Shown piece after piece: positions 1-58,977 of a stretch of 64,000 nt of DNA. Numbering within the stretch: the stretch's first letter is position 1; every line of letters begins with the position of its first letter. A program made the translations under genes and the position numbers. Location of the stretch: assembly GCA_964409615.1 (NCBI GenBank), contig CAYPDT010000001.1:14629-78628 (forward strand), read 5' to 3'. The notes below the pieces were generated by a model. That model saw only the letters and a list, made by a program, of their open reading frames with translations. It did no database searches and was not told the DNA's origin. The DNA is from an uncultured Candidatus Saccharibacteria bacterium. Its GTDB lineage: Bacteria; Patescibacteriota; Saccharimonadia; Saccharimonadales; AWTP1-31.

Positions 1-603
1 CTGTATCCAAACTGGACCGGTCGTCAGCACCTCGAATTCTATCAATCACCCCGGCCGCGCGGTGACTTTAATATCGCAAAACGCCTTGGCCTAGACCTAA
101 CTTTACAGGTTAAACACTTGTCTACAGGTAACAAACAGAAGTTAGCTCTTACAGTTGCGATGATTGGCAATCCACAGCTACTCATTATGGATGAGCCAAC
201 GAGTGGCCTTGACCCTTTACTACAGCAAGATATGTATGAGGTTCTGCGTGAATACAAGCAGGCAGGTGGCACGGTATTTCTGTCGTCGCACAATTTATCT
301 GAGGTAGAAAAAGTCTGTGACAGTGTAGCAGTCATAAAAGATGGCCGTATAGTTGCAGATAAATCTATGCAAGACATCCGCGACATGAGTATTCATATGG
401 TAAGTGTGGTGACCGAACGCCCCCTAGTACTCCCCGTTAACCTTGCAAACATTGAAATTATTAGCCAAGCAGAGACACATGCAAATTTAAGAGTTAAAGG
501 CGAACTCGGGCCTCTTTTGGGCTTTTTGGCACGTAGAAGGGTCCATGACTTAGAGATTACCCATGCCAGTCTAGAGGATGTATTCTTGGAGTTTTACTCA
601 TGA
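1..603 (+). CDS. ABC transporter ATP-binding protein (5' end cut by window edge)
   Basis: Frame is open from nt 1 (LYPNWTGRQHLEFY...) upstream of the listed ATG at 118. ABC signature LSTGNKQK, Walker B LLIMDEPTSGLD, H-loop SSHNL. Confidence 0.9.
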   Translation: MYPNWTGRQHLEFYQSPRPRGDFNIAKRLGLDLTLQVKHLSTGNKQKLALTVAMIGNPQLLIMDEPTSGLDPLLQQDMYEVLREYKQAGGTVFLSSHNLSEVEKVCDSVAVIKDGRIVADKSMQDIRDMSIHMVSVVTERPLVLPVNLANIEIISQAETHANLRVKGELGPLLGFLARRRVHDLEITHASLEDVFLEFYS

Positions 604-9964: not shown

Positions 9965-10894
9965 CTAATTCACAACTGTTAAGTAGGCCGTCGCCTCAGG
10001 ATTTTTGCCGTGCAGAATATTATTGTGTAAGGTAGCAAGGCGTTTCGTTATTGGGCCAGGAATATCTCGGCCAATTTGCCGCCCATCTACATCGGTAATT
10101 GGAGCGAGAAGTGCTGAAGTGCCACAAGCGAAAGCTTCGTCGGCGACATACAATTCTGTAAGGTCGACGGTACGTTCTTGTACTGCGATTCCTTCTTTTT
10201 GGGCAATCTCAATCAGGCTACGCCTATTAATACCCTCTAGAATATCACTGGTTGTAGAAGGAGTTATCAGCACACCGTTGCGCACTAGAAAGATATTGGC
10301 AGCCGATAACTCACAGACATGCCCATTAGCGTCTAAGAAGATACAGTCATCATAGCCACTATCAAGAGCATCTTGCTTGCCCAAAACCGAGTTAACATAA
10401 GCACCATTCACTTTAGCGCGAGCTGGAATAGAGTAGTCCGGCACTCTGCGCCATACGCTTGTCTTCAGCCGCGCTCCCTCTGCCTGTAAGATTGGTTTGG
10501 CCGGATAGATAAACATGCTGAGCACCGATGCAAGCCCGCGTACACGAGTGCCCGGCACTAATTCGTCTGCGTGAATGGTAGCCCGTATGAACACATCTTC
10601 TGAAACATGATTCTGTGTAACGAGCGTTTTAACTGCTGTGGTGAATTTATTAAAATCCCAATCGGGCGCAAAAGTATCGATACCGATTATTTTTGCTGAC
10701 TCTAATAGTCGCTGATAATGATCTTTGAGTCGGAATGCTGCCATGCCTATGTCGGTACTGTTAACTGGAAATACTGTGTATACACTGAGCCCATATAGCA
10801 CCGCCGAACTGGCAACGTGCAAGCGAGCATCATTGAAGTCGACCAAACCATTTCCATACCAAATTTTGGCTGCTTTGTAGTCGAATGTACTCAT
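9965..10894 (-). CDS. fold-type IV aminotransferase (branched-chain or D-amino-acid aminotransferase)
   Basis: 309 aa. ARAKVNGAYVNSVL...ELSAANIFLV...TPSTTSDILEGINRRSLI matches the class IV PLP aminotransferase pattern. Confidence 0.8.
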   Translation of the reverse strand: MSTFDYKAAKIWYGNGLVDFNDARLHVASSAVLYGLSVYTVFPVNSTDIGMAAFRLKDHYQRLLESAKIIGIDTFAPDWDFNKFTTAVKTLVTQNHVSEDVFIRATIHADELVPGTRVRGLASVLSMFIYPAKPILQAEGARLKTSVWRRVPDYSIPARAKVNGAYVNSVLGKQDALDSGYDDCIFLDANGHVCELSAANIFLVRNGVLITPSTTSDILEGINRRSLIEIAQKEGIAVQERTVDLTELYVADEAFACGTSALLAPITDVDGRQIGRDIPGPITKRLATLHNNILHGKNPEATAYLTVVN

Positions 10895-27413: not shown

Positions 27414-28649
27414 TTAGGATAATTTTAACTTTGCTTCGGCAAGCCGTTGAATAGCTAGAATGTAAGCGGCCGTCCGCAGGTTGGTATCATATTGTTTTTG
27501 AACACTGACCACTGCAGCCACGGCTGTAGCCATTTGAGTTTTGAGCTTAGCAAACACTTTTTGTTCTGACCAGGTTTGATTGTGCTTGTTCTGGTACCAC
27601 TCGTAGTAGCTCACAGCAACACCCCCAGCATTTGCAAGTACATCAGGAATGATAGTTACCTTCTTCTTGGCCAACATTTCGTCGGCCTCGGTCGTGACAG
27701 GGCCATTAGCTAACTCCAAAATTATGGTGGCCTGAATAGATTTAGCGTTTTGCACTGTTATGGCGGCTTCTAATGCAGCCGGGGTGAGGACGTCGACAGA
27801 CTGTGAAAAAATACTGTCTGCCGGTAAAACTTGACAGTCAATACCTAGGCTTGCTGCCGCTTTAGCCAAGGAGCCTGTCTGTCGCTTTGCAGATTCGAGT
27901 GCCATAATGTCTGAAAATCCATACTCAGAGACAATGGTGTTTTTTGAGTCTGCTATGGCCACTACCTTTATACCCTGCTCCACGGCAAAATATGCTGCAT
28001 ACACTCCTACGTTGCCGAAGCCCTGCACGGCCATTGTTTGAGTTTTTGGGTCGATATGGTGAAGAGTAAAATATTCAAGTAAGGCATAGATACCGCCCAA
28101 GCCCGTAGCTTGGGTCCGGCCCTGTGAGCCACCATTGTCCAAAGCCTTCCCCGTTACCACCGCCGTGTCGCCGTACTCATCAGCAATCCATGCCATTACC
28201 TGACCATTGGTGTTGACGTCGGGCGCGGGAACGTCAACCGTTGGCCCAATGTGCTCAGCAATTTCCCGAGTAAAGGCTCGGGTCACTTGCTCTAATTCTA
28301 TCGGACTCATGTCTCGTGGGTTAATTTGCAGACCACCTTTACCGCCACCAAAGGGTACGTCAATAACGGTATTTTTGATTGTCATCCACAGACTCAATGC
28401 TTTTGCTTCATCTTCAGACACCTGTGGATGAAAACGCAGACCACCTTTGTAAGGCCCCCGCCAGTTATTGTGCTGCATCCTGTAACCAAGTACCTTCTGC
28501 TTTGTGCCGTCCTCACGAGTAAACGGCACCTCTACATTGATTACATTATTGTGCTGCAATAAGGCATCGACAATATGTTTATCAGTGTTGGCAATTTTAG
28601 CCGCAGACAACAGATTTGCTTGTGCTTCTTCCCATGGGTTCATACACAT
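27414..28649 (-). CDS. gdh: Glu/Leu/Phe/Val-family dehydrogenase (glutamate dehydrogenase-like)
   Basis: KGGLRFHP and VPFGGGKGG motifs with a Rossmann GFGNVG. Start set at the ATG at 28649, preceded by AGGAG plus a 6-nt spacer. The longer ORF would read through a tRNA-like gene. Confidence 0.88.
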   Translation of the reverse strand: MCMNPWEEAQANLLSAAKIANTDKHIVDALLQHNNVINVEVPFTREDGTKQKVLGYRMQHNNWRGPYKGGLRFHPQVSEDEAKALSLWMTIKNTVIDVPFGGGKGGLQINPRDMSPIELEQVTRAFTREIAEHIGPTVDVPAPDVNTNGQVMAWIADEYGDTAVVTGKALDNGGSQGRTQATGLGGIYALLEYFTLHHIDPKTQTMAVQGFGNVGVYAAYFAVEQGIKVVAIADSKNTIVSEYGFSDIMALESAKRQTGSLAKAAASLGIDCQVLPADSIFSQSVDVLTPAALEAAITVQNAKSIQATIILELANGPVTTEADEMLAKKKVTIIPDVLANAGGVAVSYYEWYQNKHNQTWSEQKVFAKLKTQMATAVAAVVSVQKQYDTNLRTAAYILAIQRLAEAKLKLS

Positions 28650-28808
28650 AGTGTACTCCTGGACTGCAACGCGTGTCTGCGTTTGTTTACACAAAAATAG
28701 CCCCCTTGGCTGTAAAACCAGATGGGAGCTAGACAATTTGTATAAGTTATCTATTTGTTGATTTCGTTTATTTGAATGTATGTAGATAAATGTATATATG
28801 AACTTGTT

Positions 28809-28882
28809 TGGAGGCACGTACGGGTAACGCTCCCGTCTAGCAGGTTTTGCAGACCTGTGCCTAACTTCTCGGCCAACGCGCC
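28809..28882 (-). tRNA. tRNA-Cys (anticodon GCA), atypical D and T loops
   Basis: 74 nt. Acceptor GGCGCGU/ACGUGCC (one G:U), discriminator U73 plus CCA, anticodon arm CAGGU-CUGCAAA-ACCUG, 4-nt variable loop CUAG. The T loop is AGCGUUA and the D loop lacks GG. Confidence 0.6.
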
Positions 28883-28922
28883 TTACAGCTACCCATTTTA
28901 GCAAGGAACGAGCAACTTGTCT

Positions 28923-40986: not shown

Positions 40987-42333
40987 TCACACTAAGCTTT
41001 TGATAATATCAGCTATGTATCCGCGGTTAAGCCAAAAACATTTTTTTAATAGTTCTTGGCCCTGCGGTGTTGGCAAAGTATCTGAAGCATTTTTACCTTT
41101 TGGTCGGACATGGGCAACATGGCTCTCGGAAGCCTTGGGCAAATTAGTAGCATCAATGGATACTCGTCGCTTGGTCTCTGTCCAGACTCGTTCTGCCTCT
41201 TGCCGGTCGGCGTAGGGCATATTCCAGTATTTTGCCACTTCAAAACGATACGTACCATTATCGTCTTCACGGAAAATTACAAACAAAAACTTACGCTCTA
41301 TTTTGGCGAAGAAACTGCTATCTTCCCAGTCCTGGTTGATAATTTCCATGTACTTAAATGTTGGGAACGACATAGATTCTGCTGGCATCCAATTTTTATT
41401 AACACGAATAGTTTTAAGCTCTACTTCTGCTTTATCAAGCTCCGGTGCAATACGGTGTGCGCTGCCAAGCATTCGCATCGTGAGATTACGGTAGAATCCT
41501 TTATCGTTTTTGCCCTTCTTATAAAAATCGAGCTGTCGAGAAATCTCATCGATAGTCTTACCGATATACGGTTTGAATTTTGCGTAGGTGGCATCTTCGA
41601 TTGTTTGGGTAGGAGAGATATCTAACTGGCCAACTTCTTGAGCGTGGCCCTGAATAACACGGTTCATGTAGCTAGCTTTTAGTGAGAAAGCACGTGACTT
41701 AGCTAGCTCAGCAGAGAACGGTTGTTTTTTGAGCGACTCACTCGCACCACCAGAACCTTTGCGGCAAGCACCTAAATAATACGTGTCGCCTTCTGATAGC
41801 TCGTGAGCTTTACCGTCGATAATTTTTTGTTGGATAATTTGCCAGTCGCGCTTTATAACCAACATGTCTTCGGGTGGAAAGACATACAAAAGTGGATCAA
41901 GCACAAAGCGTCGATTGAACACGGCTACATCTTTTTCGTACAAATAGAACAAGATGAGCATCAGGCGGCACTTCTCTAGTAGTGATGACGAATCCCACTG
42001 TTCCGACACGATGTTGGCGTAATTTATCATTGTCAGAACTAGCCGTTCTTTGGCACGATAGCTACCGTCAGAACGTTTGAGGACACCGGTGGTTTTAAGC
42101 TCTACACCGGCTTGGGGAAAGTCTGGTTTGTGAGTGGTATTATCGGGCTGGTATCGGTAGTAATACTTTTCGACCATGTTACCAAGGTCGCCTTTATTGC
42201 TAATATTTTCAGCAATTTGCGTCATGTCGACGACTTCTGCTAGCGTTTTACCAGACAGACCCTTAGCATACTGGAGGAGTGATTTAGGTGAGCTTAGGTC
42301 GTAATCGACAGGAGTTACTTGAGCCATATGCAT
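40987..42333 (-). CDS. Sau3AI/MutH-family type II restriction endonuclease
   Basis: KPDFPQAGVELKTTG (the D-x(n)-E-x-K site of MutH/Sau3AI), KERLVLTMINY, GKAHELSEGDTYYLGACRKG, RAFSLKASYM. The two-domain length is like Sau3AI. The start is ambiguous (42333 or 42327). Confidence 0.8.
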   Translation of the reverse strand: MHMAQVTPVDYDLSSPKSLLQYAKGLSGKTLAEVVDMTQIAENISNKGDLGNMVEKYYYRYQPDNTTHKPDFPQAGVELKTTGVLKRSDGSYRAKERLVLTMINYANIVSEQWDSSSLLEKCRLMLILFYLYEKDVAVFNRRFVLDPLLYVFPPEDMLVIKRDWQIIQQKIIDGKAHELSEGDTYYLGACRKGSGGASESLKKQPFSAELAKSRAFSLKASYMNRVIQGHAQEVGQLDISPTQTIEDATYAKFKPYIGKTIDEISRQLDFYKKGKNDKGFYRNLTMRMLGSAHRIAPELDKAEVELKTIRVNKNWMPAESMSFPTFKYMEIINQDWEDSSFFAKIERKFLFVIFREDDNGTYRFEVAKYWNMPYADRQEAERVWTETKRRVSIDATNLPKASESHVAHVRPKGKNASDTLPTPQGQELLKKCFWLNRGYIADIIKSLV

Positions 42334-42407
42334 AATTGTCGCAAACAACGTAACCGAATTGACCGCAGGGGGCTTGATCCAAACCATCAAAGTTGTTAAG
42401 ATGATAC

Positions 42408-43676
42408 ATGACTATGGGGAAAACAATACGAATCATCGAACTATTTGCCGGAGTTGGTGGGTTCCGAATTGGACTAGAAAATGCCAGCGATACTAAGACT
42501 ACGTTCAAAACGGTATGGGCCAACCAGTTCGAGCCGGCAACAAGCCGTCAATATGCTTCGGAAGTCTATGTAGCTCGTTTTGGAAACCAAGGGTTTAGTG
42601 GCCAAGACATCGAAAAGGTTATAGAAGAAGATTTCGATAGCATTCCCGACCACGATTTGTTGGTTGGTGGCTTCCCTTGCCAAGACTACTCTGTAGCCAG
42701 CACGCTAAAAAACTCTCACGGCTTGATTGGCAAAAAGGGCGTCTTGTTTTGGTCAATTTATTCCATCCTCAAGCGCAAGGGAGATGCAGCGCCTGACTAT
42801 CTATTTCTAGAAAACGTCGACCGACTATTGAAGTCGCCGGCTAGTCAACGCGGCAAAGACTTTGCTGTAATGCTAGCCTCATTGTCTGATTTAGGCTATG
42901 CCATTGAATGGCGGATTGTAAACGCTGCTGAGTATGGCTTCCCTCAGCGCCGGCGCCGAGTGTTCATCATTGGTTATAAAAAGGGCACCAAGCTGTATGA
43001 CAAGGCGAAGGCGGCCATGGCCGCAAACGCTGCTACATGGCTGACAGCCGACGGTGTATTAGCAGATGCCTTCCCTGTTGAGCCAGAAGTGCAACCACAT
43101 ACATTAGAATTAGACGGTACATATGCCGAGATTACCGACAACTTTTCTGCACACAAACCAACAATTAGCCCCTTTCACAATGCTGGCATGGTTATTGACC
43201 GCCAGGTTATAACTGGCAAAGTTGCTCCTGTATATGACGGCAAGACTATCACCCTCGGAGATGTGCTGGTCGATGAGAACGAAGTGCCCGAAGAGTATTT
43301 TATATCTGACGAAAAGTTACCAACCTGGACGTATTTAAAGGGTGCCAAAAAAGAAGAACGGACCACCGCCAGTGGACATAAATATCACTATGCCGAGGGT
43401 GCAATGGTCTTTCCTGACGCGCTAGACAAACCGTCACGAACGATTATTACTGGCGAAGGCGGTGCTGGGGCCTCTCGCTTTAAGCATGTGGTCAGAACAC
43501 CGTCGGGCCGCTTACGCAGGCTTATACCCTTAGAGTTAGAACGTTTAGACATGTTCCCCGACAATCACACCAGTCTCGATGGTGTACCCGACAGCAAGCG
43601 AGCCTTCTTTATGGGCAATGCACTAGTGGTCGGAGCAATTCAAAAAGTGGGTCAGTCACTCTCTAAGAAAAGGTAG
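42408..43676 (+). CDS. dcm: DNA (cytosine-5)-methyltransferase
   Basis: Motif I ELFAGVGGF, motif IV GGFPCQDYS, motif VI ENV, motifs IX/X RRLIPLELERLDMFP...GNALVV. Divergent from the endonuclease gene. Confidence 0.92.
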   Translation: MTMGKTIRIIELFAGVGGFRIGLENASDTKTTFKTVWANQFEPATSRQYASEVYVARFGNQGFSGQDIEKVIEEDFDSIPDHDLLVGGFPCQDYSVASTLKNSHGLIGKKGVLFWSIYSILKRKGDAAPDYLFLENVDRLLKSPASQRGKDFAVMLASLSDLGYAIEWRIVNAAEYGFPQRRRRVFIIGYKKGTKLYDKAKAAMAANAATWLTADGVLADAFPVEPEVQPHTLELDGTYAEITDNFSAHKPTISPFHNAGMVIDRQVITGKVAPVYDGKTITLGDVLVDENEVPEEYFISDEKLPTWTYLKGAKKEERTTASGHKYHYAEGAMVFPDALDKPSRTIITGEGGAGASRFKHVVRTPSGRLRRLIPLELERLDMFPDNHTSLDGVPDSKRAFFMGNALVVGAIQKVGQSLSKKR

Positions 43677-47681: not shown

Positions 47682-48329
47682 TTATTGAGCGACCTTTACC
47701 CCAAAAGAATACACCCAATTTAAGTCACGTTTATCTGCACCGAACCGCTCTCGCTCATTAAGTACATATGATTGCTTTACTTCAAAACCAGCCTCTCGGA
47801 GCATTTCTTCTGTAGCGGGTAATGTCTTGTAATTGTAAAAACGTGCTCCGTTGCTACTGAACTTTTCAACAAGTTGTTCTGTACCCTCACCCTCTTTAAA
47901 CGAGATACAAATTGCGCCGCCAGCAACTAACACACGATTAAACTCCGCCAAAGCCTTTCTTATATCTTCGTCATTAAGATGAAGTAAAACAGCGTTGCAC
48001 CACACGCCCGAAAATGCCTCATCTTCAAAGCCAAGATGACGAACGTCCATCTTTTTAAAATCAAACTGAGGATGAAGTTGCTGACCACGTTGTAGCAGCT
48101 CATCAGACATATCAATGCCAACTACACTCAGTCCAAAACGTGAGCTGAGAACGTCCATATCTCTGCCGTATGCACATCCAGCGTCAAGCAGAGGTTTATC
48201 AGAGTGTGGCACTAAGCCCGCCAGAGTTTCTAGCTCTGGCGTTAAAACCATCTCAGCAGTGCTCTCAACATATTTCTCAGGGCTATCGTTATAGGCTTGT
48301 AGGGTCTTTGAGACATAGTCGCCGCTCAT
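47682..48329 (-). CDS. class I SAM-dependent methyltransferase
   Basis: Motif I LLDAGCAYGRD and post-I VVGIDMS. Confidence 0.8.
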   Translation of the reverse strand: MSGDYVSKTLQAYNDSPEKYVESTAEMVLTPELETLAGLVPHSDKPLLDAGCAYGRDMDVLSSRFGLSVVGIDMSDELLQRGQQLHPQFDFKKMDVRHLGFEDEAFSGVWCNAVLLHLNDEDIRKALAEFNRVLVAGGAICISFKEGEGTEQLVEKFSSNGARFYNYKTLPATEEMLREAGFEVKQSYVLNERERFGADKRDLNWVYSFGVKVAQ

Positions 48330-48335
48330 ATGCGA

Positions 48336-48542
48336 TTACTTTTTCCTTTCAATCAATTTCATTACGTCTTCACGGCGGTATCGTCTATCACGGCGTGTGC
48401 CAAACCGCACTGCAACCAGATAGCCCTTTTCATCCCACGCCCGAAGCGTGTTTGGATGGCAGTTTAGTAGCTCACACGCCTGTTTAAGCGTGAGTAGCTT
48501 CGGCTCTTTTTTCTCTGATTGTGTCATACTATAACTATACAC
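48336..48542 (-). CDS. excisionase/MerR-type HTH DNA-binding protein
   Basis: LLTLKQACELLNCHPNTLRAWDEKGYLVAVRFGTRRDRRYRREDV is an HTH_17-like pattern. Confidence 0.65.
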   Translation of the reverse strand: MYSYSMTQSEKKEPKLLTLKQACELLNCHPNTLRAWDEKGYLVAVRFGTRRDRRYRREDVMKLIERKK

Positions 48543-48883
48543 GACTTACTAACGTGAGAATTACACAGACATTCCACGATGAAATTGCAACTGAACTAGA
48601 AAAGAAGCAACAAGAACTGAATGACCGCCTAAAGTTGCTAACAAGCGACAATAAGACGTTCCAAGTGACTGCTTCTTACCTGTTAGACCTAGCTCAGCGA
48701 GCCGAACAGCTATTTAATGAGAGCAATGAGGGGCTAACACAGAAGCTGCTTGAATATTTACTTTCAAACATTGAATTAAAGGACAAAAAGCTGTCCTATA
48801 TACTAAACGACCCCTTTAAAACCATCGTTGAGGCAAAGAAAAAGACCCTTGCGGGTCATAATTCAAATATTTGGTGCCCTTGA
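48521..48883 (+). pseudogene. remnant of a large serine recombinase gene (C-terminal coiled-coil part only)
   Basis: No catalytic N-terminus. The translation loosely parallels the C-terminus of the intact recombinase at 57333..58916 (…LLEYLLSNIELKDKKLSY… vs …VLLCSIFPKGLAWSY…). The nucleotide tail TCAAAtatTTGGTGC matches TCAAAaTTGGTGC at 58853..58864. Confidence 0.45.
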
Positions 48884-48924
48884 CCGACTTTCTTTCGAAC
48901 ACCTTTTGAGCTGGTTAAGCAGTC

Positions 48925-49548
48925 TCACCCTACTAGGTAATAGATGAAATGCTTTGATACATACTCGGCTGTTCTATCTATATCTTCCTGCGACTGATTT
49001 AAGATTGCCTCGTATGCTTTTAGCCGTGCTTTCCTTAAGCTAGTTAGGCATTTACGCGTGGAAACAATGTGCGTTCCATTTTCACCATGGACCTTTGCTA
49101 ATGGCAGCTCACTATCAGAAAATCCACGAGTAAACACAAAGCCGTTTATCGAATAGTGGTGTGACAAGGAGTTACGTAGCCTCCATAAAACTTTTGTAAG
49201 TGATATGGGGTAGTCAAAGAAAAGTTCGGCACTCTCCTTAAACCATTCTCCATTTTTATTCTTGGGTGGATGTTCTTTTTTATGATAAGCCCTAGCTATA
49301 ACTTCGATAGCAGAGCAGTAGACTAGTAATGGTGAGACATAGGGTAGATCAGTGGAGAGTTTACTCTCCTCTTTTTCCTCAAGCCCCAACTTCCTGAGTC
49401 TACCCGGTAGACCAATTGCGTACTGCAGGTCTCGCTCGAGTTCAATCAAAACACTTCGTCTTTGTCGAGTATTAGCACTATAGAGCTCAAAACTCTGTTC
49501 AACAAAGAATTCCCTGAGTATTTCTTTTGAGCTTTTAAAGCTTGCCAT
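48925..49548 (-). CDS. HEPN-like protein (RNxxxH motif), putative RNase/toxin
   Basis: 207 aa. LWRLRNSLSHHYS contains the R-N-x3-H signature shared by HEPN families. Lies 13 nt downstream of the XRE gene. Confidence 0.4.
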   Translation of the reverse strand: MASFKSSKEILREFFVEQSFELYSANTRQRRSVLIELERDLQYAIGLPGRLRKLGLEEKEESKLSTDLPYVSPLLVYCSAIEVIARAYHKKEHPPKNKNGEWFKESAELFFDYPISLTKVLWRLRNSLSHHYSINGFVFTRGFSDSELPLAKVHGENGTHIVSTRKCLTSLRKARLKAYEAILNQSQEDIDRTAEYVSKHFIYYLVG

Positions 49549-49561
49549 GTTTATCTTTTTG

Positions 49562-49780
49562 CTAGAGCAAATCTATGGACTTAATCTTAAGCGCCTTCAT
49601 CATACTTTGCAGTTTCTCAAATGAGGGATTTTCCTCGCCACGCTCTACACGAGCATAGAAGTTAACATGTACGCCAGATTTTGTAGCGACTTCAAGCTGA
49701 GTCAACTTTAAAACTTCGCGTGCTTTCTTTAACCGCTCGCCAAGTTCTTTTCGTGCTTTTTCTTGCTCATCACTAGCCAT
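49562..49780 (-). CDS. XRE-family helix-turn-helix transcriptional regulator
   Basis: LGERLKKAREVLKLTQLEVATKSGVHVNFYARVERGEENPSFEKL is a canonical HTH_3. Confidence 0.85.
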   Translation of the reverse strand: MASDEQEKARKELGERLKKAREVLKLTQLEVATKSGVHVNFYARVERGEENPSFEKLQSMMKALKIKSIDLL

Positions 49781-49820
49781 ATATGGATACTATACCATAA
49801 CTGTATATTTATAGGTGCTT

Positions 49821-52800
49821 CTACCCTGCTTGCACGGTCGGAGTCACCAACCTTGGAACGGAGTTAGTAGCTTTTCCGGCTTTTGGTAGGGTGATTTGCA
49901 CAGTTGTACCATTCGAGCTACTGGATAGCTCAATCTTTCCACCTAATTGCTCAACAATTAACTTGTCCGTGTAGAGACTCAAGCCTAGACCCTGATAGTC
50001 GTAGGTTTCTGTGTCGGTAGCCCTATAGAACGGTTCAAACATATGGGGTAGTCGTTCGGTTGGGATTCCAATACCATTGTCAGTCACACGTATAACTACC
50101 TGTTTTCTGGCTGGATGAGCTGAGATATCTATCGTTCCGCTATCTTTATTGAACTTGATGGCATTATCTATAACAGACCGCACGAGCTGTTTTAGTTGCT
50201 CCGGCTGAGTGGAGGCTTCGAGATCATCGGGAATACTTACCTGTATTTGTAGATGTTTCGCTTCGGTCTGAGGCTGCAGTTCACTAAGGGTGCGCGTTAC
50301 TTCTTGTTTTAGGTTAAGGAGTGGATTGTCAGAAGACAAGTTCGTTAACTGGGTTGTTTTTGCCAGACTGCTAACCGTTGCCCCGAGCATACCGAGTCCG
50401 TTATAGAAGGTCCTAGTCTCCGGAATGATATGGAAGTCCTTACTAGCGATACTCAGATTCTCGTAGTTGTCAGCAAGTGATGAACTAGCCTGCGACATAA
50501 AGATTGTTCGTTGATTCACCAACTGTTGTTCTGTGGCAATCGAGGCTTGGGCAACTGCTTGAGCTGTAAGCTGCACGTCACGATTATTGTGAGCAAAGGC
50601 GATCAGGCCAGCTGCCAAAATGAGGCAAAGTATTTGAAGGCCGGTCTGTACCAAGCTCAGTGTATAGACGTGGGCGTGCGTGAACAAGAAGGTAGCTAGG
50701 ATTAAGAGCGTCGTCACGATAGCTATGGGTACCCAGACGGCTCGTTGCTTGAGGGGACTGGATTTGTGTGAAACCGTGCCTATCATAGCCACACCTGCAC
50801 TCGGGAGATCGTGGGTGTCACTTGCGGCAGTTACCAGTTGTGCAGCCGTGCCTAGTTGCGTTACGTCTGCAGAATATTTCTTTAACTTTGACTGAAGGTT
50901 TGCTATAGCCCACTCCGGTAGCTTACGGAGTGAGGCAAGCAGCTCAACAGCTCCATTCATGATTGCTAACGGTGTATTGAGGTAGTGCGTGGTTATTGCC
51001 AAGTAGGTATCGAGGGCTTGTTTTGTGCCTCGCAGTCTCGACAAAGCTGACTCCAGTCGTTTTCGTGCCAGGTATTCTTTGCGGGCTCGCCAGGAATATA
51101 GCCCAGCAATGATGAGTAGGATGAGTAGCAAGAGCCAGTTTATCGAGATGGCTGCAGTATCTGAAAAGCGTTGCAAGAAACCACTGCGTTTGCTCACAGC
51201 AAAATTATTGATTTGATCTTTCAAGACACTCTCTTGAGGTCCACCCGCCGACTCGGAACTTGTGGACGGTGGGCTGAGAATGGAAGTACTCGGAGGCGTC
51301 TTGGGGGTAGTGGGTTTTGGCTTTGGGTTAGGGGCAACGGGCGGTGGAGTAGTACCTCCTCCACCGCCACCACCTGAGCTATGAGTGTAAGCCGCACTAC
51401 TAACATTGTTAACTGTGAGCGTTGAAAAATCGATGTTACTACCGAGTGCTGCATAGATAACTGCTGCATCGGCTGTCTCGTGATGAACATCAATGTAAAA
51501 CGCCTTGCTCGTTGAGCTACTGGTAGTAAAGTTTGCATTGGCCGAGCCTAGTACATCGAACTCAATACTCTGCCCTACATTGATCAAAACATTAGACACT
51601 GCGTTTGTACAATCGAGCACATGATGACCAGCAAACACCGCTGGCCAGTATGGACTTGGGATGTTGTCTGCAAGACCGTAATCTGTACACGTCACTTGTG
51701 ACCCGTTGGTATTAGAGACGAAGGTAAATTCTGTGGGCAGGACAGTGATCATCTCGCCTATAAACTCTGAATTAACCGGACCTTCATTCGTGATCTTAAT
51801 GTGGTACGTTACAGTATCTCCATTTACAATATTCCCTGTTGTAGTGAGAGTTTGGGTGAGGCTGAAGTCGGTTTGATCAGAGACTGGAGGCGGGCAGTTC
51901 TCCCCAGCGTCGTTGATAGTCCATGAAAAAGTAGAAATAATATCAGCTCGGTCCGAGGCAGCAGCACAGTAGGTACTGGTGCCAGCATCAAAGGTGACAC
52001 CAGCCTGCAAGGCTAGAAGATCCCAACCCACCAGGGTGTCATCATAGTTAGTGGTTGAAAGTCCAGAAGTTGAGGAGAGCATGCCGCCGACGTCTCCAAA
52101 CATATAAGACATATTTGTTACTTGGTCTACGTTCCATGAGTCCAATGACTGATCAAAGGAAGAGGCTCCCGCAAACATACCATCCATGCGTGTCACATGA
52201 CTTACGTCCCAACTGTCCAAAGGTTGATTGAAAGATACGGCGCCTACAAACACTCCTTCCATATCCGTCACGCTACTGACATCCCAACTATCAAGTGGCT
52301 GATTAAATGAAGCAGCTTCTTGGAACATTAGGCCCATGTTTGTCACATTACTAACATCCCAGTTATCAAGAGGCTGGTTAAAGGCAGTTGCTGCAGCAAA
52401 CATTCCACTCATTGTAGTCACATTACCAACGTCCCAATTATCAAGTGGCTGATTAAAGTCAGCGGCACCACAAAACATGCAATGCATATCTGTTACCTGA
52501 CTAACATCCCAACTATTGAGCGGCTGGTTAAAGGCTGTTGTACCAGCGAGACCTTCGTAGCCAAACATGAAGTCCATGTCGGTTACATTACTAGTGTCCC
52601 AACTATCAAGTGGCTGATTAAATGAAGCAGCTTCTTGGAACATTAGGCCCATGTTTGTCACATTACTAACATCCCAGTTATCAAGAGGCTGGTTAAACAT
52701 AGTCGCATGGCCAAAAGTGTCGTACATGCTGGTTACCTGACTAACATCCCAGTTATTGATGTTTGAGTTAAGTGAAGTATCACCCGTAAACATGAAGTCC

Positions 52801-55800
52801 ATATCGGTCACCCCCGATAAATCGGGCGTATCAGTTGCAGGGATAGTAAGATGGGAAGCGCCACCAAAGGCTTCATACATTGATGTCCAGTGATTCGTAC
52901 CCCATTGCTCAACAGTTAGGATTTTCTCATTATCTTTATCGGTATCACTTCCATATAACTCGATGCGTGGAAAAAGTCCGGTAATTTTAACTGTATACGT
53001 CCCAGCCGTTGCGTAGGTGTGATTTGCATCCCCCGTGAAGCCTGTGTCAGTGCTAGAATCACCCCAATCAACGTTGTAGTTGTAAGTTTCGCCCGAGTGG
53101 GTAGGAATAATGATCTGGTTACTGGCAGATACACCAGGATTATCCGTCTTCCAGGTAGTTATGAAAGGACATGTACCCGTACAAGGCGGGGTAGTGCATG
53201 CAACGGTATCGAAGGTTTGATCTTCACCATAACCAGTCCCGTCAATGTTTTGTGCGAATGCTCTGAAGTGGTAAGTAACGCCACAATCTAGTGTGCTGAC
53301 GTCGAGCGCGTAATCACCAACCTGGTGCACGGTATATTCACGAACTTCCGAAGAGCCGGGAAGGATGACAGTTCCGTCACCCTTGACTGCAATGCTACTA
53401 CCCATACCGTTAAAACTTGTCACATAATGGCCGCTACTGGTGAATACTTGGGTGCGGGCATTGCCGAAGTCAATGGCATATATGTTATCAACCGTATCAA
53501 ATGCCATTCGGACGACACCATTGAACTGCCCAACAGCGCCACCTAACGACCCCCACTCAGTGATAAAGTTCCCGTCGCTATCGAACTTAACAACTCGATC
53601 ATTATTTACAGAAGGTGAGCTTTTATCGCTTACATAAACTCTGTCGTGACTATCAATTGCTATGCCAAAAGGTGTCTGGAGATGATCACCGAGCGTTCCA
53701 ATCGAGCTCCATTTAGTGATGAAGTTCCCATCGCTATCAAATTTCTGGATTCGATTATTCAGCTGATCCGTTACGTAGACATTACCGATACTGTCTACGG
53801 CAATCTGGGATGGTTCATTAAACTGCCCGTCACCTGTGCCAAATGAGCCCCACTTGGTAATAAAGTTTCCATCGCTATCGAACTTCTGTATTCGGTTGTT
53901 AGCATAATCAGCCACGTATACTTCGTCACTGTGACTAATGGCGATTCCACACGACTGGTTGAACTGCCCATCACCCGTACCAAATGAGCCCCACTTCGTA
54001 ATAAAAGTTCCGTTACTATCAAACTTCTGAACGCGATTGGGTGGTGAGCCGACGCCGTTGTTGCCCTCTGTAGTGTAGATGTTCCCCTGACTGTCGAGCG
54101 CAACTCCTGAAGTGGTGGTGAACTGGCCATCACCACCGCCAGCCTGCCCCCATTGTTTACTTTGTGTATAGCTTGCTGGAGATTCACTTACCGTTTGGCC
54201 ATAACTTGTGGAAGTTCCGTATTCAAAACCTCTACTATTGACGGGGTGTGAACCAACCGTCCATAGCGTACCTTGCAATCTAGCAGTGTCTCCAGTTACA
54301 TTTGTTGCTGCATTTGTCGAGACAAGTGGAGGTGCTCGTAACTGTGGAAGACCATCGGCAATAGTTTTCCAGATGGTGCTAAAGTCCCAGTCGTTAAGCG
54401 GTGCACTTGAGTTATTATTGGTGAAGTAGTTAGGCTGCCCATTTGCAATGTTAACTCCTACGGCATTCTGGCCGATACCGATACCGTTGCCGCCGCCATC
54501 TGCTTGCCCAGTACGGCTAACGTCAAAGTAGTTGGAGCTCAGATCAGACGAAGTAGCACCAAAAAAGCCACTTCCATTCTCACTACCAGAAATAACAACA
54601 GAGCTAGCGCTAAAACTATCCTCAACGGTTTGGGTATATCCTCCTCCATAGCCGACTAAACCAGCCGAACTGGCTGACGAATCACTACTGGGACAGCTTA
54701 CGCTTCCTGACGAGTATGTTCGTTGAATAGTACTATTCAAAGCTGTACCAACGAGGCCGCCGCAATGTCTCCAGTAAGCGTTAGATACACCGATGATGCT
54801 GCCCGTGGCGTAGCTATCTCTTATAACTCCTGCTTGACTCGGTGTGCCGTTAACTCCAACCAATCCGCCGGCTGATCCTACACCTGTTGCGTTAAGCAAA
54901 CTGATATTACCACTAGCGTAGCTTTTCTCGATAAGACCCCGGTTGTCGCCTACTAAACCACCTACGCCTGTTGTTGAACTGATAGTGACATCGGCATGGA
55001 CAGAACTTATTGTTCCGAGATTGCTGGCAGCAACAGAACCAACAGATACTCCAGCTCCTGTCGGGCACCCCGTAATATTACCGCGCACCGTAAGATTTTT
55101 TACAACTCCACCCGTAACAATGAACTGAAATATCCCTAGTTGTGAGGCACAGCGGTTAATATAAAAAGCGTTAATGGCATAGTCTTTACCATTTAGCTCA
55201 CCACTAAATATGCTAATTGGCGTGAAGCCTTGGCCGCTGTCCCAACCACTTGAAGCGCTGCAATCTATGTCTGTTGTTAATATATAGTGCGCGCTTAAAT
55301 TAGATTCTAATTCCTGCAGCTGGTCACAGGTTGCGATTTGGTAGGGGTTCTGACTGGTTCCTGCCCCGCTGCCCGAGAATGCAAAAATATGAGGAGCTAC
55401 TATCAGCAGTGTAATTGCCATCACGACAAAACTGGTTGTCCCCATTGCCACCGAGTAGCTGAGTGGCCGCCAATGATACCTTAGTAACGGCAAGCTAACC
55501 ACTTTCAGGTGATGAAGAAGTCCGTATTGAACAGATGGCAGTTCTGCTTTCAAGGGTTTTTTGTGCTGCCTATAGTCAATGATGAGGTAGGCTGTTAGGC
55601 CTAAAACCAGGGCTGCTAATAGACCGATAGAAAGGATCGTTTCGTCAAGTAAGAAGTTTATCTTTGAGTTAGTGATTTCGTGAGAAGTCGAATGATAGAG
55701 GCTTTGACCGAGTGAACTGTATGCTAGTACAGTGGTAATTGTACTCAAGGATGCAATCAATAGAATCGAATACAGGAAGTACCGATATCGGTAGCCTACA

Positions 55801-55862
55801 CGAGCAATATATGCTTTGAGTCTTCCTAAGCGAGTCAGTAGACTCTGCAACTTAACAGCCAT
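49821..55862 (-). CDS. giant multi-domain surface protein fused to histidine-kinase core (GLUG repeats, Ig-like, NHL propeller, DUF285/BspA-like repeats, DUF11-like, TM, H-box, 2 TM, HATPase_c)
   Basis: Uninterrupted 2013-aa ORF. 3 N-terminal TM helices. GVGGLVG/SAGGLVG repeats, NRIQKFDSDGNFITKWGSFGTGDGQF NHL repeats, about 10 FNQPLDxWDVSxVTxMxxMF repeats. C-terminal N/G1/F/G2 boxes DNAIKF, DNGIGI, FEPFYR, GLGLSL. Confidence 0.85.
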   Translation of the reverse strand: MAVKLQSLLTRLGRLKAYIARVGYRYRYFLYSILLIASLSTITTVLAYSSLGQSLYHSTSHEITNSKINFLLDETILSIGLLAALVLGLTAYLIIDYRQHKKPLKAELPSVQYGLLHHLKVVSLPLLRYHWRPLSYSVAMGTTSFVVMAITLLIVAPHIFAFSGSGAGTSQNPYQIATCDQLQELESNLSAHYILTTDIDCSASSGWDSGQGFTPISIFSGELNGKDYAINAFYINRCASQLGIFQFIVTGGVVKNLTVRGNITGCPTGAGVSVGSVAASNLGTISSVHADVTISSTTGVGGLVGDNRGLIEKSYASGNISLLNATGVGSAGGLVGVNGTPSQAGVIRDSYATGSIIGVSNAYWRHCGGLVGTALNSTIQRTYSSGSVSCPSSDSSASSAGLVGYGGGYTQTVEDSFSASSVVISGSENGSGFFGATSSDLSSNYFDVSRTGQADGGGNGIGIGQNAVGVNIANGQPNYFTNNNSSAPLNDWDFSTIWKTIADGLPQLRAPPLVSTNAATNVTGDTARLQGTLWTVGSHPVNSRGFEYGTSTSYGQTVSESPASYTQSKQWGQAGGGDGQFTTTSGVALDSQGNIYTTEGNNGVGSPPNRVQKFDSNGTFITKWGSFGTGDGQFNQSCGIAISHSDEVYVADYANNRIQKFDSDGNFITKWGSFGTGDGQFNEPSQIAVDSIGNVYVTDQLNNRIQKFDSDGNFITKWSSIGTLGDHLQTPFGIAIDSHDRVYVSDKSSPSVNNDRVVKFDSDGNFITEWGSLGGAVGQFNGVVRMAFDTVDNIYAIDFGNARTQVFTSSGHYVTSFNGMGSSIAVKGDGTVILPGSSEVREYTVHQVGDYALDVSTLDCGVTYHFRAFAQNIDGTGYGEDQTFDTVACTTPPCTGTCPFITTWKTDNPGVSASNQIIIPTHSGETYNYNVDWGDSSTDTGFTGDANHTYATAGTYTVKITGLFPRIELYGSDTDKDNEKILTVEQWGTNHWTSMYEAFGGASHLTIPATDTPDLSGVTDMDFMFTGDTSLNSNINNWDVSQVTSMYDTFGHATMFNQPLDNWDVSNVTNMGLMFQEAASFNQPLDSWDTSNVTDMDFMFGYEGLAGTTAFNQPLNSWDVSQVTDMHCMFCGAADFNQPLDNWDVGNVTTMSGMFAAATAFNQPLDNWDVSNVTNMGLMFQEAASFNQPLDSWDVSSVTDMEGVFVGAVSFNQPLDSWDVSHVTRMDGMFAGASSFDQSLDSWNVDQVTNMSYMFGDVGGMLSSTSGLSTTNYDDTLVGWDLLALQAGVTFDAGTSTYCAAASDRADIISTFSWTINDAGENCPPPVSDQTDFSLTQTLTTTGNIVNGDTVTYHIKITNEGPVNSEFIGEMITVLPTEFTFVSNTNGSQVTCTDYGLADNIPSPYWPAVFAGHHVLDCTNAVSNVLINVGQSIEFDVLGSANANFTTSSSTSKAFYIDVHHETADAAVIYAALGSNIDFSTLTVNNVSSAAYTHSSGGGGGGGTTPPPVAPNPKPKPTTPKTPPSTSILSPPSTSSESAGGPQESVLKDQINNFAVSKRSGFLQRFSDTAAISINWLLLLILLIIAGLYSWRARKEYLARKRLESALSRLRGTKQALDTYLAITTHYLNTPLAIMNGAVELLASLRKLPEWAIANLQSKLKKYSADVTQLGTAAQLVTAASDTHDLPSAGVAMIGTVSHKSSPLKQRAVWVPIAIVTTLLILATFLFTHAHVYTLSLVQTGLQILCLILAAGLIAFAHNNRDVQLTAQAVAQASIATEQQLVNQRTIFMSQASSSLADNYENLSIASKDFHIIPETRTFYNGLGMLGATVSSLAKTTQLTNLSSDNPLLNLKQEVTRTLSELQPQTEAKHLQIQVSIPDDLEASTQPEQLKQLVRSVIDNAIKFNKDSGTIDISAHPARKQVVIRVTDNGIGIPTERLPHMFEPFYRATDTETYDYQGLGLSLYTDKLIVEQLGGKIELSSSSNGTTVQITLPKAGKATNSVPRLVTPTVQAG
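52282..52382. repeat. 101-nt perfect direct repeat, copy 1 (inside DUF285-like repeat block)
   Basis: Checked base by base and identical to 52597..52697. The 315-nt offset is in frame. Confidence 0.95.
52597..52697. repeat. 101-nt perfect direct repeat, copy 2
   Basis: Identical to 52282..52382. Confidence 0.95.
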
Positions 55863-56015
55863 ATATTACTACCCGCTTTTTTTACGCTCATGCTTGTATT
55901 TATTGTATCACAAGAACACCTTGGCTAACCTTGAGTGCAAGCACTTTAAACTACTGAGCAATACTGGTTGTCAGACTGTGCATCCCACCCTGTTAACTTG
56001 GTCATGTTATAGAAC

Positions 56016-56816
56016 CTATCGCTCCAAGTCGCTTATCGACACTTGCTCATCTTCCTCAAAAGCTTCAGCCCAAACGGACGGCTTATTATCGTTTGCGAGT
56101 AGTCTATCTATAGTCGTCGTGTAAAACTCAAAGTCCTGGCTAGTCTCTTCAATAGTCTTGAGTAAGCGCTTCTCAATAGTGTCAGTAGGAGCTATTAAAA
56201 GCACATACGGGTAATCGCCCTCCCAACCCTCATCTTCTTCGTGCGTTTGGTACGTTCTCATTTTCTTAATATGGACAAAGTAGGGTACGCCTTTCTCAAG
56301 GATGCTCACCATAAACTCGTTAACTTTACCTTCTTTTGACTTCACTCGCCTAAGGTAGAAATCTGGTAATGGCCTTGGGAAGAAGTCATAGGCACTTAGC
56401 TCAAATCTGCTGAAGATACTGAAAGTGTCACCATAATGTCGTTTAAAGGCACTGAAGATCTCTAAAGCCTGTAAACACTTGTTGATGTACTCCAAGTTCA
56501 TCCGTTTGTTCTTATACATGTTACGGAGCGCCATATCGCTCAGTTTGTGCTCCTCGTTTCGGAGTAACTTGATCCCTTTGGTATCCAAACAATAGATTGC
56601 AGGTATATGCGCCAACCTGAAGCTTCCGTTGTACCTTTTCTCTACAAATCCTTGCCCAACCAAGACATACAGATTCTCATAGACACTCGACTTATTTCTT
56701 CCTAATACTTCTGCCAATAACGGCACACTAACAAATCTAAACTTATATATTAGTTTTAATAATCTTAACTGTTTTTCTGTTAACGTCTTTCTATATTTAG
56801 GTTCTTTTTTTAACAC
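56016..56816 (-). CDS. replication-relaxation-like winged-helix protein
   Basis: LTEKQLRLLKLIYKFRFVSVPLLAEVLGRNKSSVYENLYVLVGQGFVEKRY resembles the N-terminal wHTH of replication-relaxation family proteins of plasmids/ICEs. Confidence 0.45.
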   Translation of the reverse strand: MLKKEPKYRKTLTEKQLRLLKLIYKFRFVSVPLLAEVLGRNKSSVYENLYVLVGQGFVEKRYNGSFRLAHIPAIYCLDTKGIKLLRNEEHKLSDMALRNMYKNKRMNLEYINKCLQALEIFSAFKRHYGDTFSIFSRFELSAYDFFPRPLPDFYLRRVKSKEGKVNEFMVSILEKGVPYFVHIKKMRTYQTHEEDEGWEGDYPYVLLIAPTDTIEKRLLKTIEETSQDFEFYTTTIDRLLANDNKPSVWAEAFEEDEQVSISDLER

Positions 56817-57049
56817 ACTCTAATCTTCTATCTCCCACTACCATTCTTACTATTAGTAGCTCTATATGTATATATAATAGAGAGGAAAATTTATAGCAAG
56901 CATACAGATTAGAAGATGCGAAATAATAGGGCTTCCGATAGTGGGGCTAGTTATCCACAGGAATATACGAAATATCTTCACTTTACTCTTGCAATACACA
57001 CTATACGGATAGTACAATATATCCATATAATGTTGGTCGAGGGTACGAC

Positions 57050-57331
57050 ATGGCACTACTAGAACAGATGGTTCAACAAGCAGGGATACGGGGTAATAGT
57101 CCACTGGCTGCAATAGACGAAGCTATGCAGCGTGTCCTTGCTCCACCTCAGCAAGAGACTAAACTACTAAAAGCTCGCCATACTATGGGTGCTGCTCTGG
57201 TTGATGTGCCTGATGAGGATTTAGAAGTATATCTCACTGAATTCCAGCACTTGGTCGATGGTTGGTTTGATTGCTTCGAGCAGGACATGTTTAACGGAGC
57301 CACACTTAAACAAGTGCTCGGTCAAAGCTAG
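57050..57331 (+). CDS. hypothetical small protein upstream of the recombinase
   Basis: 93-aa ORF ending 1 nt before the recombinase ATG. No motif recognised. Confidence 0.4.
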   Translation: MALLEQMVQQAGIRGNSPLAAIDEAMQRVLAPPQQETKLLKARHTMGAALVDVPDEDLEVYLTEFQHLVDGWFDCFEQDMFNGATLKQVLGQS

Positions 57332-57332
57332 C

Positions 57333-58916
57333 ATGGCAGACATCGATTCTACCAGTAAGCCTCCTGGATCTGGCAAAGCAGTAATATATCTACGTGTTTC
57401 AACAGAAGAACAAGTTGAAAACTATTCGCTAGATACGCAGGCAGATATTTGTCGCAAGGAAGCTGAAAGACGAGGATTTGGGATACTGGAGATCTTCCGT
57501 GAAGAAGGACGCTCGGCAAAGACCATACGTGACCGTCCCACTCTCATAGAGCTATTAGAGTTTTGCCGAAAACACCGAAAAGAAGTTGATGCCGTAATAG
57601 TCTACAGGCTTGATCGAATTTCAAGACAAACAGCTGACTACTTAGCGATACGCAAGAAGCTAACCGAATGCGATATTACCCTCATATCGGCCTCAGAACC
57701 AACGGGCGATACCCCAACCGAACGCTTTATAGAGACCATGCTGGCAGGATTTGCTCAAATGGATAACGATGTTCGGGGTGAGCGCGCGAGGAACGGCATG
57801 AAAGCACGTTTTATGAGCGGTCTATATAATGGTCCGCCTCCTTTAGGCTACGTGAGACAGGACGGATATGCAGCAAAAGACGCGGAATCGTATAGCATTG
57901 TTCAAGAAGCATGGGAACTCATGGCTACTGGCACTAAAAGTCTTCGAGATATGGCTAACTTCCTAAATGAAAAAGGTGTCAGGAATCGACGTAAAGGCTA
58001 CAAGGAAACTCTCATACGCAAACAGACTATGAGTAGTATCTTTCGTAATAAGTTTTACGCTGGCAAAGTCGTGTCTAGGAAGTACGGACAAGAAGTCCAA
58101 GGCCAACACCCACCCATGATCACCGAAGAGGTATTCTACCGTGTACAGGCAGTTTTAGATGGCAAGAACCATAATACGCCCATACGACTTGCCAGACGCA
58201 CTCGAAATAACCCCGACTTCCCTTTGAGGCGTGTTGTCCGTTGCGGTAGATGTGGTCAATCTTTTACAGGTGCTTGGAGTAAAGGTAAACGCTTGCTATA
58301 CGGCTATTACTTTTGTATTAAGCGCTGTGGCGCGAAGTCAAACGTACCATTAGCTGAAATCGAGCCTGAAACCAAAGGCCTACTTGAGAGTATTACATTA
58401 AAGCCTGAGACAACTCAGCTCATTAACGCTTTTATACGGAGAACCTACGTCTTACGAGTAGGTGCTTTACGACTAAAGCGAGATCAGGCCGACATCGAAC
58501 TTAAGAAAGTCTATGAGACACGACAGGCGCTGATAGAGAAAAACCTAGATGGTACCTATTCGGATGAGATATTCAAGGAGCAGAATAAGATATTAGAGGA
58601 AAAGATTGGTGCTATTCAGACTGCAAAAGATGTAGCGACTATCGAAAAGTATAACCTCGAGGCAATCACGCAGTTCATTCAGGATAAGTTTACAAACCTA
58701 AATAACACCTACGAAGAGGCTGATTTAGAGCGTAAACGGGTTTTACTGTGTTCGATATTCCCTAAAGGATTGGCTTGGAGCTATCCGGGTTATTCCAACA
58801 CCCAAATAAGTCCGTTCTACCAGTGTTTTCTCGATATTCAAAATGGAAAGGTCAAAATTGGTGCGGGTTACGGGACTCTAACCCGTGGCCTCGTCCTTGG
58901 CAAGGACGCGCTCTAA
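57333..58916 (+). CDS. large serine recombinase
   Basis: AVIYLRVSTEEQ (catalytic Ser), VYRLDRISR, recombinase domain, Zn-ribbon CGRCGQSF...C-x3-C, coiled-coil C-terminus. Start set at MADIDS (57333). Confidence 0.9.
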   Translation: MADIDSTSKPPGSGKAVIYLRVSTEEQVENYSLDTQADICRKEAERRGFGILEIFREEGRSAKTIRDRPTLIELLEFCRKHRKEVDAVIVYRLDRISRQTADYLAIRKKLTECDITLISASEPTGDTPTERFIETMLAGFAQMDNDVRGERARNGMKARFMSGLYNGPPPLGYVRQDGYAAKDAESYSIVQEAWELMATGTKSLRDMANFLNEKGVRNRRKGYKETLIRKQTMSSIFRNKFYAGKVVSRKYGQEVQGQHPPMITEEVFYRVQAVLDGKNHNTPIRLARRTRNNPDFPLRRVVRCGRCGQSFTGAWSKGKRLLYGYYFCIKRCGAKSNVPLAEIEPETKGLLESITLKPETTQLINAFIRRTYVLRVGALRLKRDQADIELKKVYETRQALIEKNLDGTYSDEIFKEQNKILEEKIGAIQTAKDVATIEKYNLEAITQFIQDKFTNLNNTYEEADLERKRVLLCSIFPKGLAWSYPGYSNTQISPFYQCFLDIQNGKVKIGAGYGTLTRGLVLGKDAL

Positions 58917-58935
58917 ACAACTGAGCTAAACCCGC
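58859..58935 (-). tRNA. tRNA-Gly (anticodon GCC), CCA encoded
   Basis: Reverse complement: acceptor GCGGGUU/AACCCGC, anticodon arm CGUCC-UUGCCAA-GGACG, T arm ACGGG-UUAGAGU-CCCGU, discriminator A plus CCA. Confidence 0.88.
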
Positions 58936-58948
58936 ATAACAGGGGAAG

Positions 58949-58977
58949 ATTATATAGCAAAAATTGCTGTAACTCAA
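58949..58977 (-). promoter_or_regulatory. sigma70-type promoter for tRNA-Gly
   Basis: Minus strand reads TTGAGT, a 17-nt spacer, then TATAAT, with the -10 ending 13 nt before the tRNA 5' end. Same hexamers and spacing as the rpmF promoter. Confidence 0.55.

Follow-up and report, generated by a model that had tools for sequence, protein, structure and literature searches.

Within a 64,000-nucleotide stretch of an uncultured Candidatus Saccharibacteria genome (contig CAYPDT010000001.1; this whole stretch is hereafter the window) we describe an integrative element of 9,987 bp, spanning about 48,87x–58,86x between two copies of the heptamer TTGGTGC at the 3' end of a tRNA-Gly(GCC) gene, which was very probably inserted there by its own large serine recombinase (LSR). 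Insertion was precise, falling between the tRNA and its former downstream flank and leaving the tRNA intact, and would have proceeded as recombination of an attP site on the element with an attB site at the tRNA, with crossover at a GT dinucleotide corresponding to tRNA A73-C74. The covariation of the element's arm with its target tRNA is explained only by site-specific recombination. An initial annotation had proposed an element of ~10 kb in this tRNA gene, and the limits it gave agree with the flank-tRNA joints that lack the element, with the other occupants of the site and with the recurrence of the P' arm described below (feature coordinates are collected in Table 1).

Both TTGGTGC copies are found where the initial annotation had placed them, and the sequences to their right differ as it described, with CCTTGACCG... 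following the left core and GGGTTACGGG... following the right. The right copy is the complement of tRNA G71-C72-A73-C74-C75-A76 plus one base. However, this heptamer is common in the window, occurring 25 times versus 10.6 expected, so that the repeat alone is no evidence; we rejected the pair as significant by itself, and the case rests on context and comparison. No longer tRNA-derived repeat was found in the window. The pair does gain significance because a profile of the left arm matches the 47 nt from 48871, its sole match in the window.

Comparison with relatives at the tRNA-Gly locus provided the joints that define the element. A look-up with the right-flank tetratricopeptide repeat (TPR) protein returned 10 contigs, three of which (L003, L004 and L009) are occupied, their sequence matching the window at 100% identity through the right junction. 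Contig L002, on the other hand, matches positions 64000-58858 at 99.98% and then passes directly into 48877-48680 at 88%, the overlap being the 7-bp core. The left-flank sequence likewise lies directly on tRNA-Gly in other Saccharibacteria (L116, 604 kb; L120, 158 kb; L150, 14 kb), and 54 of 120 flank homologues run straight into this tRNA. Five contigs from other studies (L128-L132) are 99.6% identical to the left flank through 48907, 30 nt beyond the core, past which a different element occupies the same junction, and three related elements (L012, L013 and L014) have the same core and left arm and share the XRE, winged-helix (wHTH), 93-aa open reading frame (ORF) and LSR genes, with different cargo. 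Flank-tRNA joints, alternative occupants and the recurrent arm together delimit the element as a separate unit of 9,987 bp and show that the occupants of the site turn over. Whether relatives have empty sites or excision products was the question on which the initial annotation had staked its proposal; empty sites and alternative occupants exist, whereas an excision product was not found in IMG/VR or Joint Genome Institute (JGI) contigs.

The P' arm that recurs in L012, L013 and L014 is also conserved in 25 JGI metagenome contigs, whose left flanks are unrelated and consist mostly of terminator hairpins. The arm is similar in sequence to the 3' end of the target tRNA, and the two vary together, the arm reading TGAC..ACT for Gly and TGAA..ACTT for Leu, with a core of TGGTAC for an Arg tRNA and GGGTG for Leu-TAA. 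Across 10 attL/attR pairs, with offsets counted from the T of TGG and motifs read off the sequences, the T-loop-like GAAC lies at +25..28 in P' arms versus +20..23 in tRNAs. As the outer zinc-ribbon (ZD) motif of serine-integrase sites is 5 bp closer to the centre in attB than in attP (PMC3783163), the more outward GAAC of P' matches this attP/attB rule. The P' half-site would accordingly be a tRNA-like sequence whose T-loop motif is moved 5 bp outward, as in canonical serine-integrase sites, and the B' half-site would be the acceptor/T-arm of the tRNA itself. GGTC (58850-58853) and GACC (48882-48885) mirror one another about the second G of TGG, and the attL/attR identity blocks of the 10 elements intersect at positions 2-5 from the T (GTGG in L047, GTGCC in L048). 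GT is the sole dinucleotide that lies within all 10 blocks and at the symmetry centre, and the two observations together leave it as the likely crossover, at tRNA A73-C74. The L002 junction and the identity blocks thus agree with the initial annotation, which had put the crossover at the CCA/discriminator end of the tRNA. As a separate observation, the empty sites deduced for L047 (about 5230 and 11485) and L048 (about 2653 and 11476), with tRNA-Ala and tRNA-Leu as targets, have no encoded CCA, reading AATTGT... and AAAGT...; there the arm of the integrated element provides the CCA.

The gene at the right end encodes the expected large serine recombinase, with three characteristic domains (Resolvase PF00239, E=3.7e-33; Recombinase PF07508, E=1.8e-14; Zn_ribbon_recom PF13408, E=2.5e-6, above cut-off). 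Its open frame spans 57258-58916 and is intact, with an annotated start at 57333, and the motif R21-V22-S23, which includes the catalytic Ser, is invariant in 26 homologues. The protein is identical to P0001 and falls into the integrase family PHROG 95, and its homologues carry Saccharibacteria or Patescibacteria names. In a survey of 80 LSR loci from species-representative genomes (55-98% identity) a convergent tRNA was found at the LSR 3' end in 68; of the remaining 12, 7 are interrupted by the end of a contig. The LSR ORF overlaps the convergent tRNA in 67 of these 68 loci, by 22-232 nt, and the clade as a whole uses 12 target tRNA identities (Leu, Glu, Gly, Pro, Arg, Ala, Ser, Phe, Lys, Met, Asp and Gln). 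These figures make tRNA targeting a property of the clade and not an accident of this locus, and they establish a Patescibacteria-wide group of LSRs whose members almost always abut a convergent tRNA 3' end.

In this arrangement attP would sit inside the LSR ORF. In the integrated form the last 18 codons of the LSR are antisense tRNA-Gly, while at the opposite end of the element the LSR-frame reading continues as a detached 3' gene end. Elements targeting Gly, Leu, Arg and Ala tRNAs share the tail consensus GAL[DE]xL[SC]F[EQ]HLLxWL[DN]xLxxxF... in this frame, and differences beyond the ~25-bp half-site are distributed over the three codon positions as 554/358/833 (pairwise counts, the pairs not being independent), a pattern that indicates translation. 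In an excised circle the GALDRLSFEHLLSWLSSLTLLGNR tail would follow in frame after LSR codon 509, giving an integrase with a conserved C-terminal tail of ~25-30 aa, and integration would swap this tail for the 18 tRNA-antisense residues. With attP in this position integration would change the LSR C-terminus, and the exchange may bias the directionality or activity of the enzyme.

Several observations weigh against insertion by the LSR as set out here. A strictly isogenic empty site was not found, every contig with an identical left flank being occupied, and the tRNA of L002 has a T7:C66 mismatch, a 3'-side single-nucleotide polymorphism (SNP) that breaks the 7:66 pair, so that this contig may have arisen by homologous recombination, or by chimeric assembly, within the tRNA. 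GC content is not atypical (0.453 in the element versus 0.461 in the rest of the window); no GC or skew signal marks the element in the window, and the windowed GC calculation suggested in the initial annotation therefore yields no support; an integrative element in a tRNA gene need not, strictly, be atypical in composition. A single-gap alignment of P' with B' favours the 5-bp gap weakly, none of the 120 best LSR homologues has the P' tail at its end, and IMG/VR and JGI contigs yielded neither an attP junction nor a circular form. A P' pattern search of IMG/VR gave 0 matches, a looser pattern gave 16 matches that were all to unrelated AT-rich phage, and the 25 JGI contigs with a P' arm all have chromosomal left flanks and no circle junction.

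Some of these points would also fit arrival or exchange of the island mainly by homologous recombination after DNA uptake, with the conserved tRNA-Gly and the conserved integrase remnant on its left (described below) as anchors and the LSR having no current role. The two sides of L002 differ in identity (99.98% on the right, 88% on the left) and a 3'-side tRNA SNP is what a crossover inside the tRNA should leave; near-identical left flanks carry different elements; and no excised form was seen in IMG/VR, in JGI contigs or at the ends of LSR homologues. We nevertheless hold this explanation to be very improbable: at 12 tRNAs and in unrelated genomic contexts the junctions fall at the same core to the nucleotide, the element's arm and its target tRNA covary, and the LSR ORF is intact, as is its detached tail, with coding constraint on both.

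The sequence immediately to the left of the element is also derived from a recombinase gene. The ORF at 48557-48877 aligns at 73% identity with residues 397-502 of P0250, a full-length LSR that ends ...NIWCG, reading into tRNA-Gly. The 48557-48877 ORF also shows 39% identity to the C-terminus of an L014 ORF with Recombinase and Zn-ribbon domains, and this L014 ORF in turn aligns collinearly with the window LSR (E=4e-9). The initial annotation had regarded the sequences left of both cores as related recombinase 3' ends: by way of the P0250 and L014 intermediates this is upheld, but the left one derives from a second LSR clade and is part of the target flank, not of the element. Direct similarity between the two 3' ends was dropped as evidence (BLASTP E=3.5, hhalign probability 0.1), the link being made only through the full-length proteins. 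No N-terminal part of the older integrase was found in the window. The remnant ORF has 232 homologues, mostly short (more than 120), that diverge exactly after WC; in 120 of them the sequence that follows is tRNA-Gly (54), the arm type of the present element (3), another arm-like sequence (53) or a truncation (10). Its ratio of nonsynonymous to synonymous substitution (dN/dS) is 0.05-0.21 at dS 0.66-1.7, with no indels, and by this measure the remnant is evidently under strong purifying selection. The remnant may serve as a functional small ORF; alternatively, full-length genes may keep it uniform through gene conversion.

Relatives repeat the 5' edge of the remnant immediately ahead of ITQ; starts are specific to lineages, and the cargo and regulators upstream differ in L116, L120 and L150. 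A P'-like motif at this edge was considered and dropped, as it had no nhmmer support. In P0249 (386 aa) an unrelated 285-aa N-terminus is fused in-frame with the remnant at the same G|ITQ boundary. Contig L151 carries two remnant copies (10013-10333 and 15736-16053), 5.7 kb apart, which flank a copper-resistance cassette (CsoR, DUF305, P-type ATPase), each copy being followed by TGGTGC and arm-like sequence. The tRNA-Gly site thus looks like an array of recombinase-less cassettes. Such an array could also mean that the mobile entity is a larger composite unit, in which a decayed element (about 43.7-48.9 kb) has accreted with the 10-kb element. This interval holds genes for DUF1801, a GDSL lipase, a 606-aa protein, a methyltransferase and HTH_17 as well as the integrase remnant. 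HTH_17 proteins are often excisionases, the remnant forms the right end of LSR-less cassettes lying in tandem at tRNA-Gly (L151), and the cassettes in L116, L120 and L150 contain accessory cargo with a regulator adjoining the remnant. The composite is still distinctly unlikely, given that the window contains, to the left, neither another P'-type arm nor another core in matching context and that the left genes are unmoved where the right-hand element differs.

A further possibility, which we consider unlikely though worth stating, combines these strands: the LSR ORF split at attP would be a built-in state switch, and cargo cassettes lacking a recombinase would be arrayed at tRNA-Gly in the manner of an integron. 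The tail-bearing circle form would then integrate, the tRNA-tailed chromosomal form would be silent or excision-prone, and read-through from the tRNA would run antisense to the tRNA-tailed LSR. Each cassette would end in the selected 106-codon integrase C-terminal ORF, which might act in trans as a decoy, directionality factor or landing pad.

The 9,987-bp element shares with phage-type serine integrase systems (A118/LI, TP901-1, phiC31, Bxb1 and SPbeta) the Resolvase, Recombinase and zinc-ribbon architecture, an integrase gene at the element end beside attP, a short identity core and the outer P'/B' motif that is 5 bp nearer the centre in attB (PMC3783163). It differs in that its LSR is distant (TP901-1 catalytic domain, E=7e-11), in that it targets a tRNA 3' end where theirs is a protein-coding gene, in having attP inside the integrase ORF, and in a 93-aa upstream partner that has no match to known directionality factors. 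In myxophage Mx8 attP lies within intP, attB overlaps the 3' end of a tRNA gene, and integration alters the integrase C-terminus. The attP-in-integrase layout is alike, but Mx8 Int is a tyrosine recombinase and the window enzyme a serine recombinase. The tRNA islands catalogued by Islander/TIGER also lie at tRNA 3' ends, with a tRNA-proximal integrase gene and a preserved tRNA, yet almost all of them have tyrosine integrases (PMC7192596). In that 2020 survey 14 of 297 predicted serine-integrase islands were in t(m)RNA genes, a use described as 'not reported previously' (PMC7192596), and 27 of 937 Prochlorococcus tycheposons carry a large serine recombinase (bioRxiv 10.1101/2020.12.28.424599). 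Tycheposons resemble our element, by description, as small cargo-carrying elements in tandem at tRNA genes with degenerate remnants; they belong to a different phylum, however, and mostly have tyrosine recombinases and replication genes. Accretion in streptococcal cis-mobilizable and integrative and conjugative elements (CIME/ICE) likewise places recombinase-less, att-flanked cassettes in tandem with an autonomous element at one site. Those systems are conjugative and use tyrosine integrases, whereas the cassettes here keep a 106-codon integrase C-terminus under apparent purifying selection.

Our literature search on serine recombinases that target tRNAs in the candidate phyla radiation (CPR) or Saccharibacteria found nothing specific, and the LSR island apparently represents an undescribed and unusual variant of a known general kind. 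Serine integrases, the chief tools for large-DNA insertion, are thought to avoid tRNA genes. A natural LSR clade with at least 12 target tRNAs and covarying arms offers a matched series of integrases, attP and attB sites for the study or re-engineering of specificity. For CPR bacteria, about whose mobilome little is known, the clade can serve as a marker of mobile DNA, and it offers a testable case in which the C-terminus of an integrase would depend on its integration state.

The remaining genes of the element follow a pattern in which a backbone of left arm, 93-aa ORF and LSR, often with XRE and wHTH genes, is conserved across the clade and the cargo varies. The 93-aa ORF, noted in the initial annotation as a small ORF upstream of the recombinase, sits immediately ahead of the LSR at each of the 79 loci that could be evaluated. 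It had no Pfam, PHROG, NCBIfam or PADLOC match, and its AlphaFold2 (AF2) model (pLDDT 73) gave no fold match; by linkage it is a candidate directionality factor or cofactor, and among the proteins of the element the likeliest to be a directionality factor. The low GC of the divergent intergenic region and a promoter-like site within it agree with the AT-rich control region that had been proposed. The kinase-fusion cargo is likewise borne out, as a 2013-aa PARCEL/NHL protein with a histidine-kinase-type ATPase domain that is absent from related elements, which carry other cargo. Its gene contains 75-nt periodic repeats (PARCEL units) and 141-156-nt repeats (NHL blades) at 52097-52811 and 53521-54039. 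Other assignments fared less well. Of the XRE/HEPN pair the XRE half stands; the HEPN half does not, the best Pfam match of the 207-aa protein being pEK499_p136 (E=0.048, 13.8 bits against a 26.6-bit cut-off) with no PADLOC match. The supposed replication-relaxation gene, encoding the 266-aa wHTH protein, matches Replic_Relax at E=0.0028, below the Pfam cut-off, with weak PHROG matches and no sequence match in the PDB.

Pfam, PHROG and NCBIfam searches of the element found no relaxase, coupling protein or type IV secretion genes, so that movement between cells would need transformation or a helper. The weak Replic_Relax and PHROG matches of the wHTH protein, and the single relative recovered when IMG/VR was scanned with the LSR protein, could be taken to indicate a prophage remnant, satellite or integrated plasmid in place of a simple integrative island. 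That origin is barely credible: no capsid, terminase, portal, tail, replication-initiator, relaxase or partition gene was detected with Pfam, PHROGs or NCBIfam, the PHROG matches in the element comprise the integrase and regulators only, and the IMG/VR relative is itself integrated beside tRNA-Phe.

Table 1. Features of the integrative element and its flanks (positions in the window).
Feature	Position	Strand	Remarks
Last 106 codons of second-clade LSR (LSR'), outside element	48557..48877	+	Ends ...NIWC at core; supplies B arm
Intrinsic terminator hairpin GACCCGCAAGGGTC then T-run	48844..48857	-	Terminator scan
Left TTGGTGC core (attL)	48871..48877	+	Putative crossover GT, 48874-48875
P' arm, tRNA-3'-end-like half-site	48871..48917	+	nhmmer E=2.7e-10, sole window match
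Detached LSR gene 3' end, 24 codons + stop, GALDRLSFEHLLSWLSSLTLLGNR	48873..48947	+	LSR-frame reading
207-aa protein	48925..49548	-	Common only to L012
XRE-family helix-turn-helix (HTH) regulator, 72 aa	49562..49780	-	PF01381 E=3.7e-12; in 23/80 related loci
Cargo, 2013-aa protein	49821..55862	-	PARCEL/DUF285 repeats, NHL beta-propeller, C-terminal histidine-kinase-type ATPase domain
Winged-helix (wHTH) protein, 266 aa	56016..56816	-	HVO_A0114 E=1.7e-7; in 30/80 related loci
AT-rich divergent intergenic region	56817..57049	.	GC 0.36; promoter-like site 56989-57018 (+)
93-aa all-helical protein	57050..57331	+	Ends 1 nt before LSR start
LSR, integrated form, 527 aa	57333..58916	+	Resolvase, Recombinase, Zn_ribbon_recom domains
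P arm, inside LSR coding sequence	58833..58857	+	GGTC 58850-58853 mirrors GACC 48882-48885
Right TTGGTGC core (attR)	58858..58864	+	Putative crossover GT, 58861-58862 = tRNA A73-C74
tRNA-Gly(GCC), intact, target gene, source of B' arm	58859-58935	-	ARAGORN; Rfam 70.6 bits
Promoter-like site TTGAGT-17-TATAAT upstream of tRNA-Gly	58949..58977	-	Promoter scan

Insertion also bears on transcription of the tRNA. In empty sites the terminator lies 14 nt past tRNA-Gly. Its hairpin shows compensatory changes (GAGCC..GGCTC) in L002, L013 and L116. In the window it lies inside the integrase-gene remnant and is now 9,987 bp away, so that read-through from the promoter-like site at 58977-58949 would enter the LSR gene in antisense.

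Some minor observations concern assemblies and neighbouring genes. The short-read contigs L001, L006, L007 and L010 stop at 58908-58909, inside tRNA-Gly, which is the expected assembly-graph branch where strains share the tRNA and differ beyond it. At its end contig L125 (10658-10712) has a 55-nt copy of 48802-48856 placed after 49210, probably an assembly artefact. Further left in the window, at 40987-43676, gene calls on L125 show a MutH-domain protein (466-467 aa) next to a divergent C5 DNA methylase (422 aa), and the two may form a restriction-modification or nicking pair. The HTH_17 protein and adjacent S-adenosylmethionine (SAM) methyltransferase at 47682-48542 match the PADLOC models mad1 (1.6e-9) and mad2 (1.9e-14) of MADS defence; no further MADS components were seen. 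ARAGORN calls a tRNA-Cys(GCA) at 28809-28882 that is below the Rfam gathering score and is overlapped by a 496-aa ORF (27414-28904). Finally, left arms in L097, L098, L106, L112 and L114 lie 0.6-2.5 kb from tRNA-Gly with no integrase in between, some of these contigs having two left arms 600-770 bp apart, and are decayed or miniature elements.

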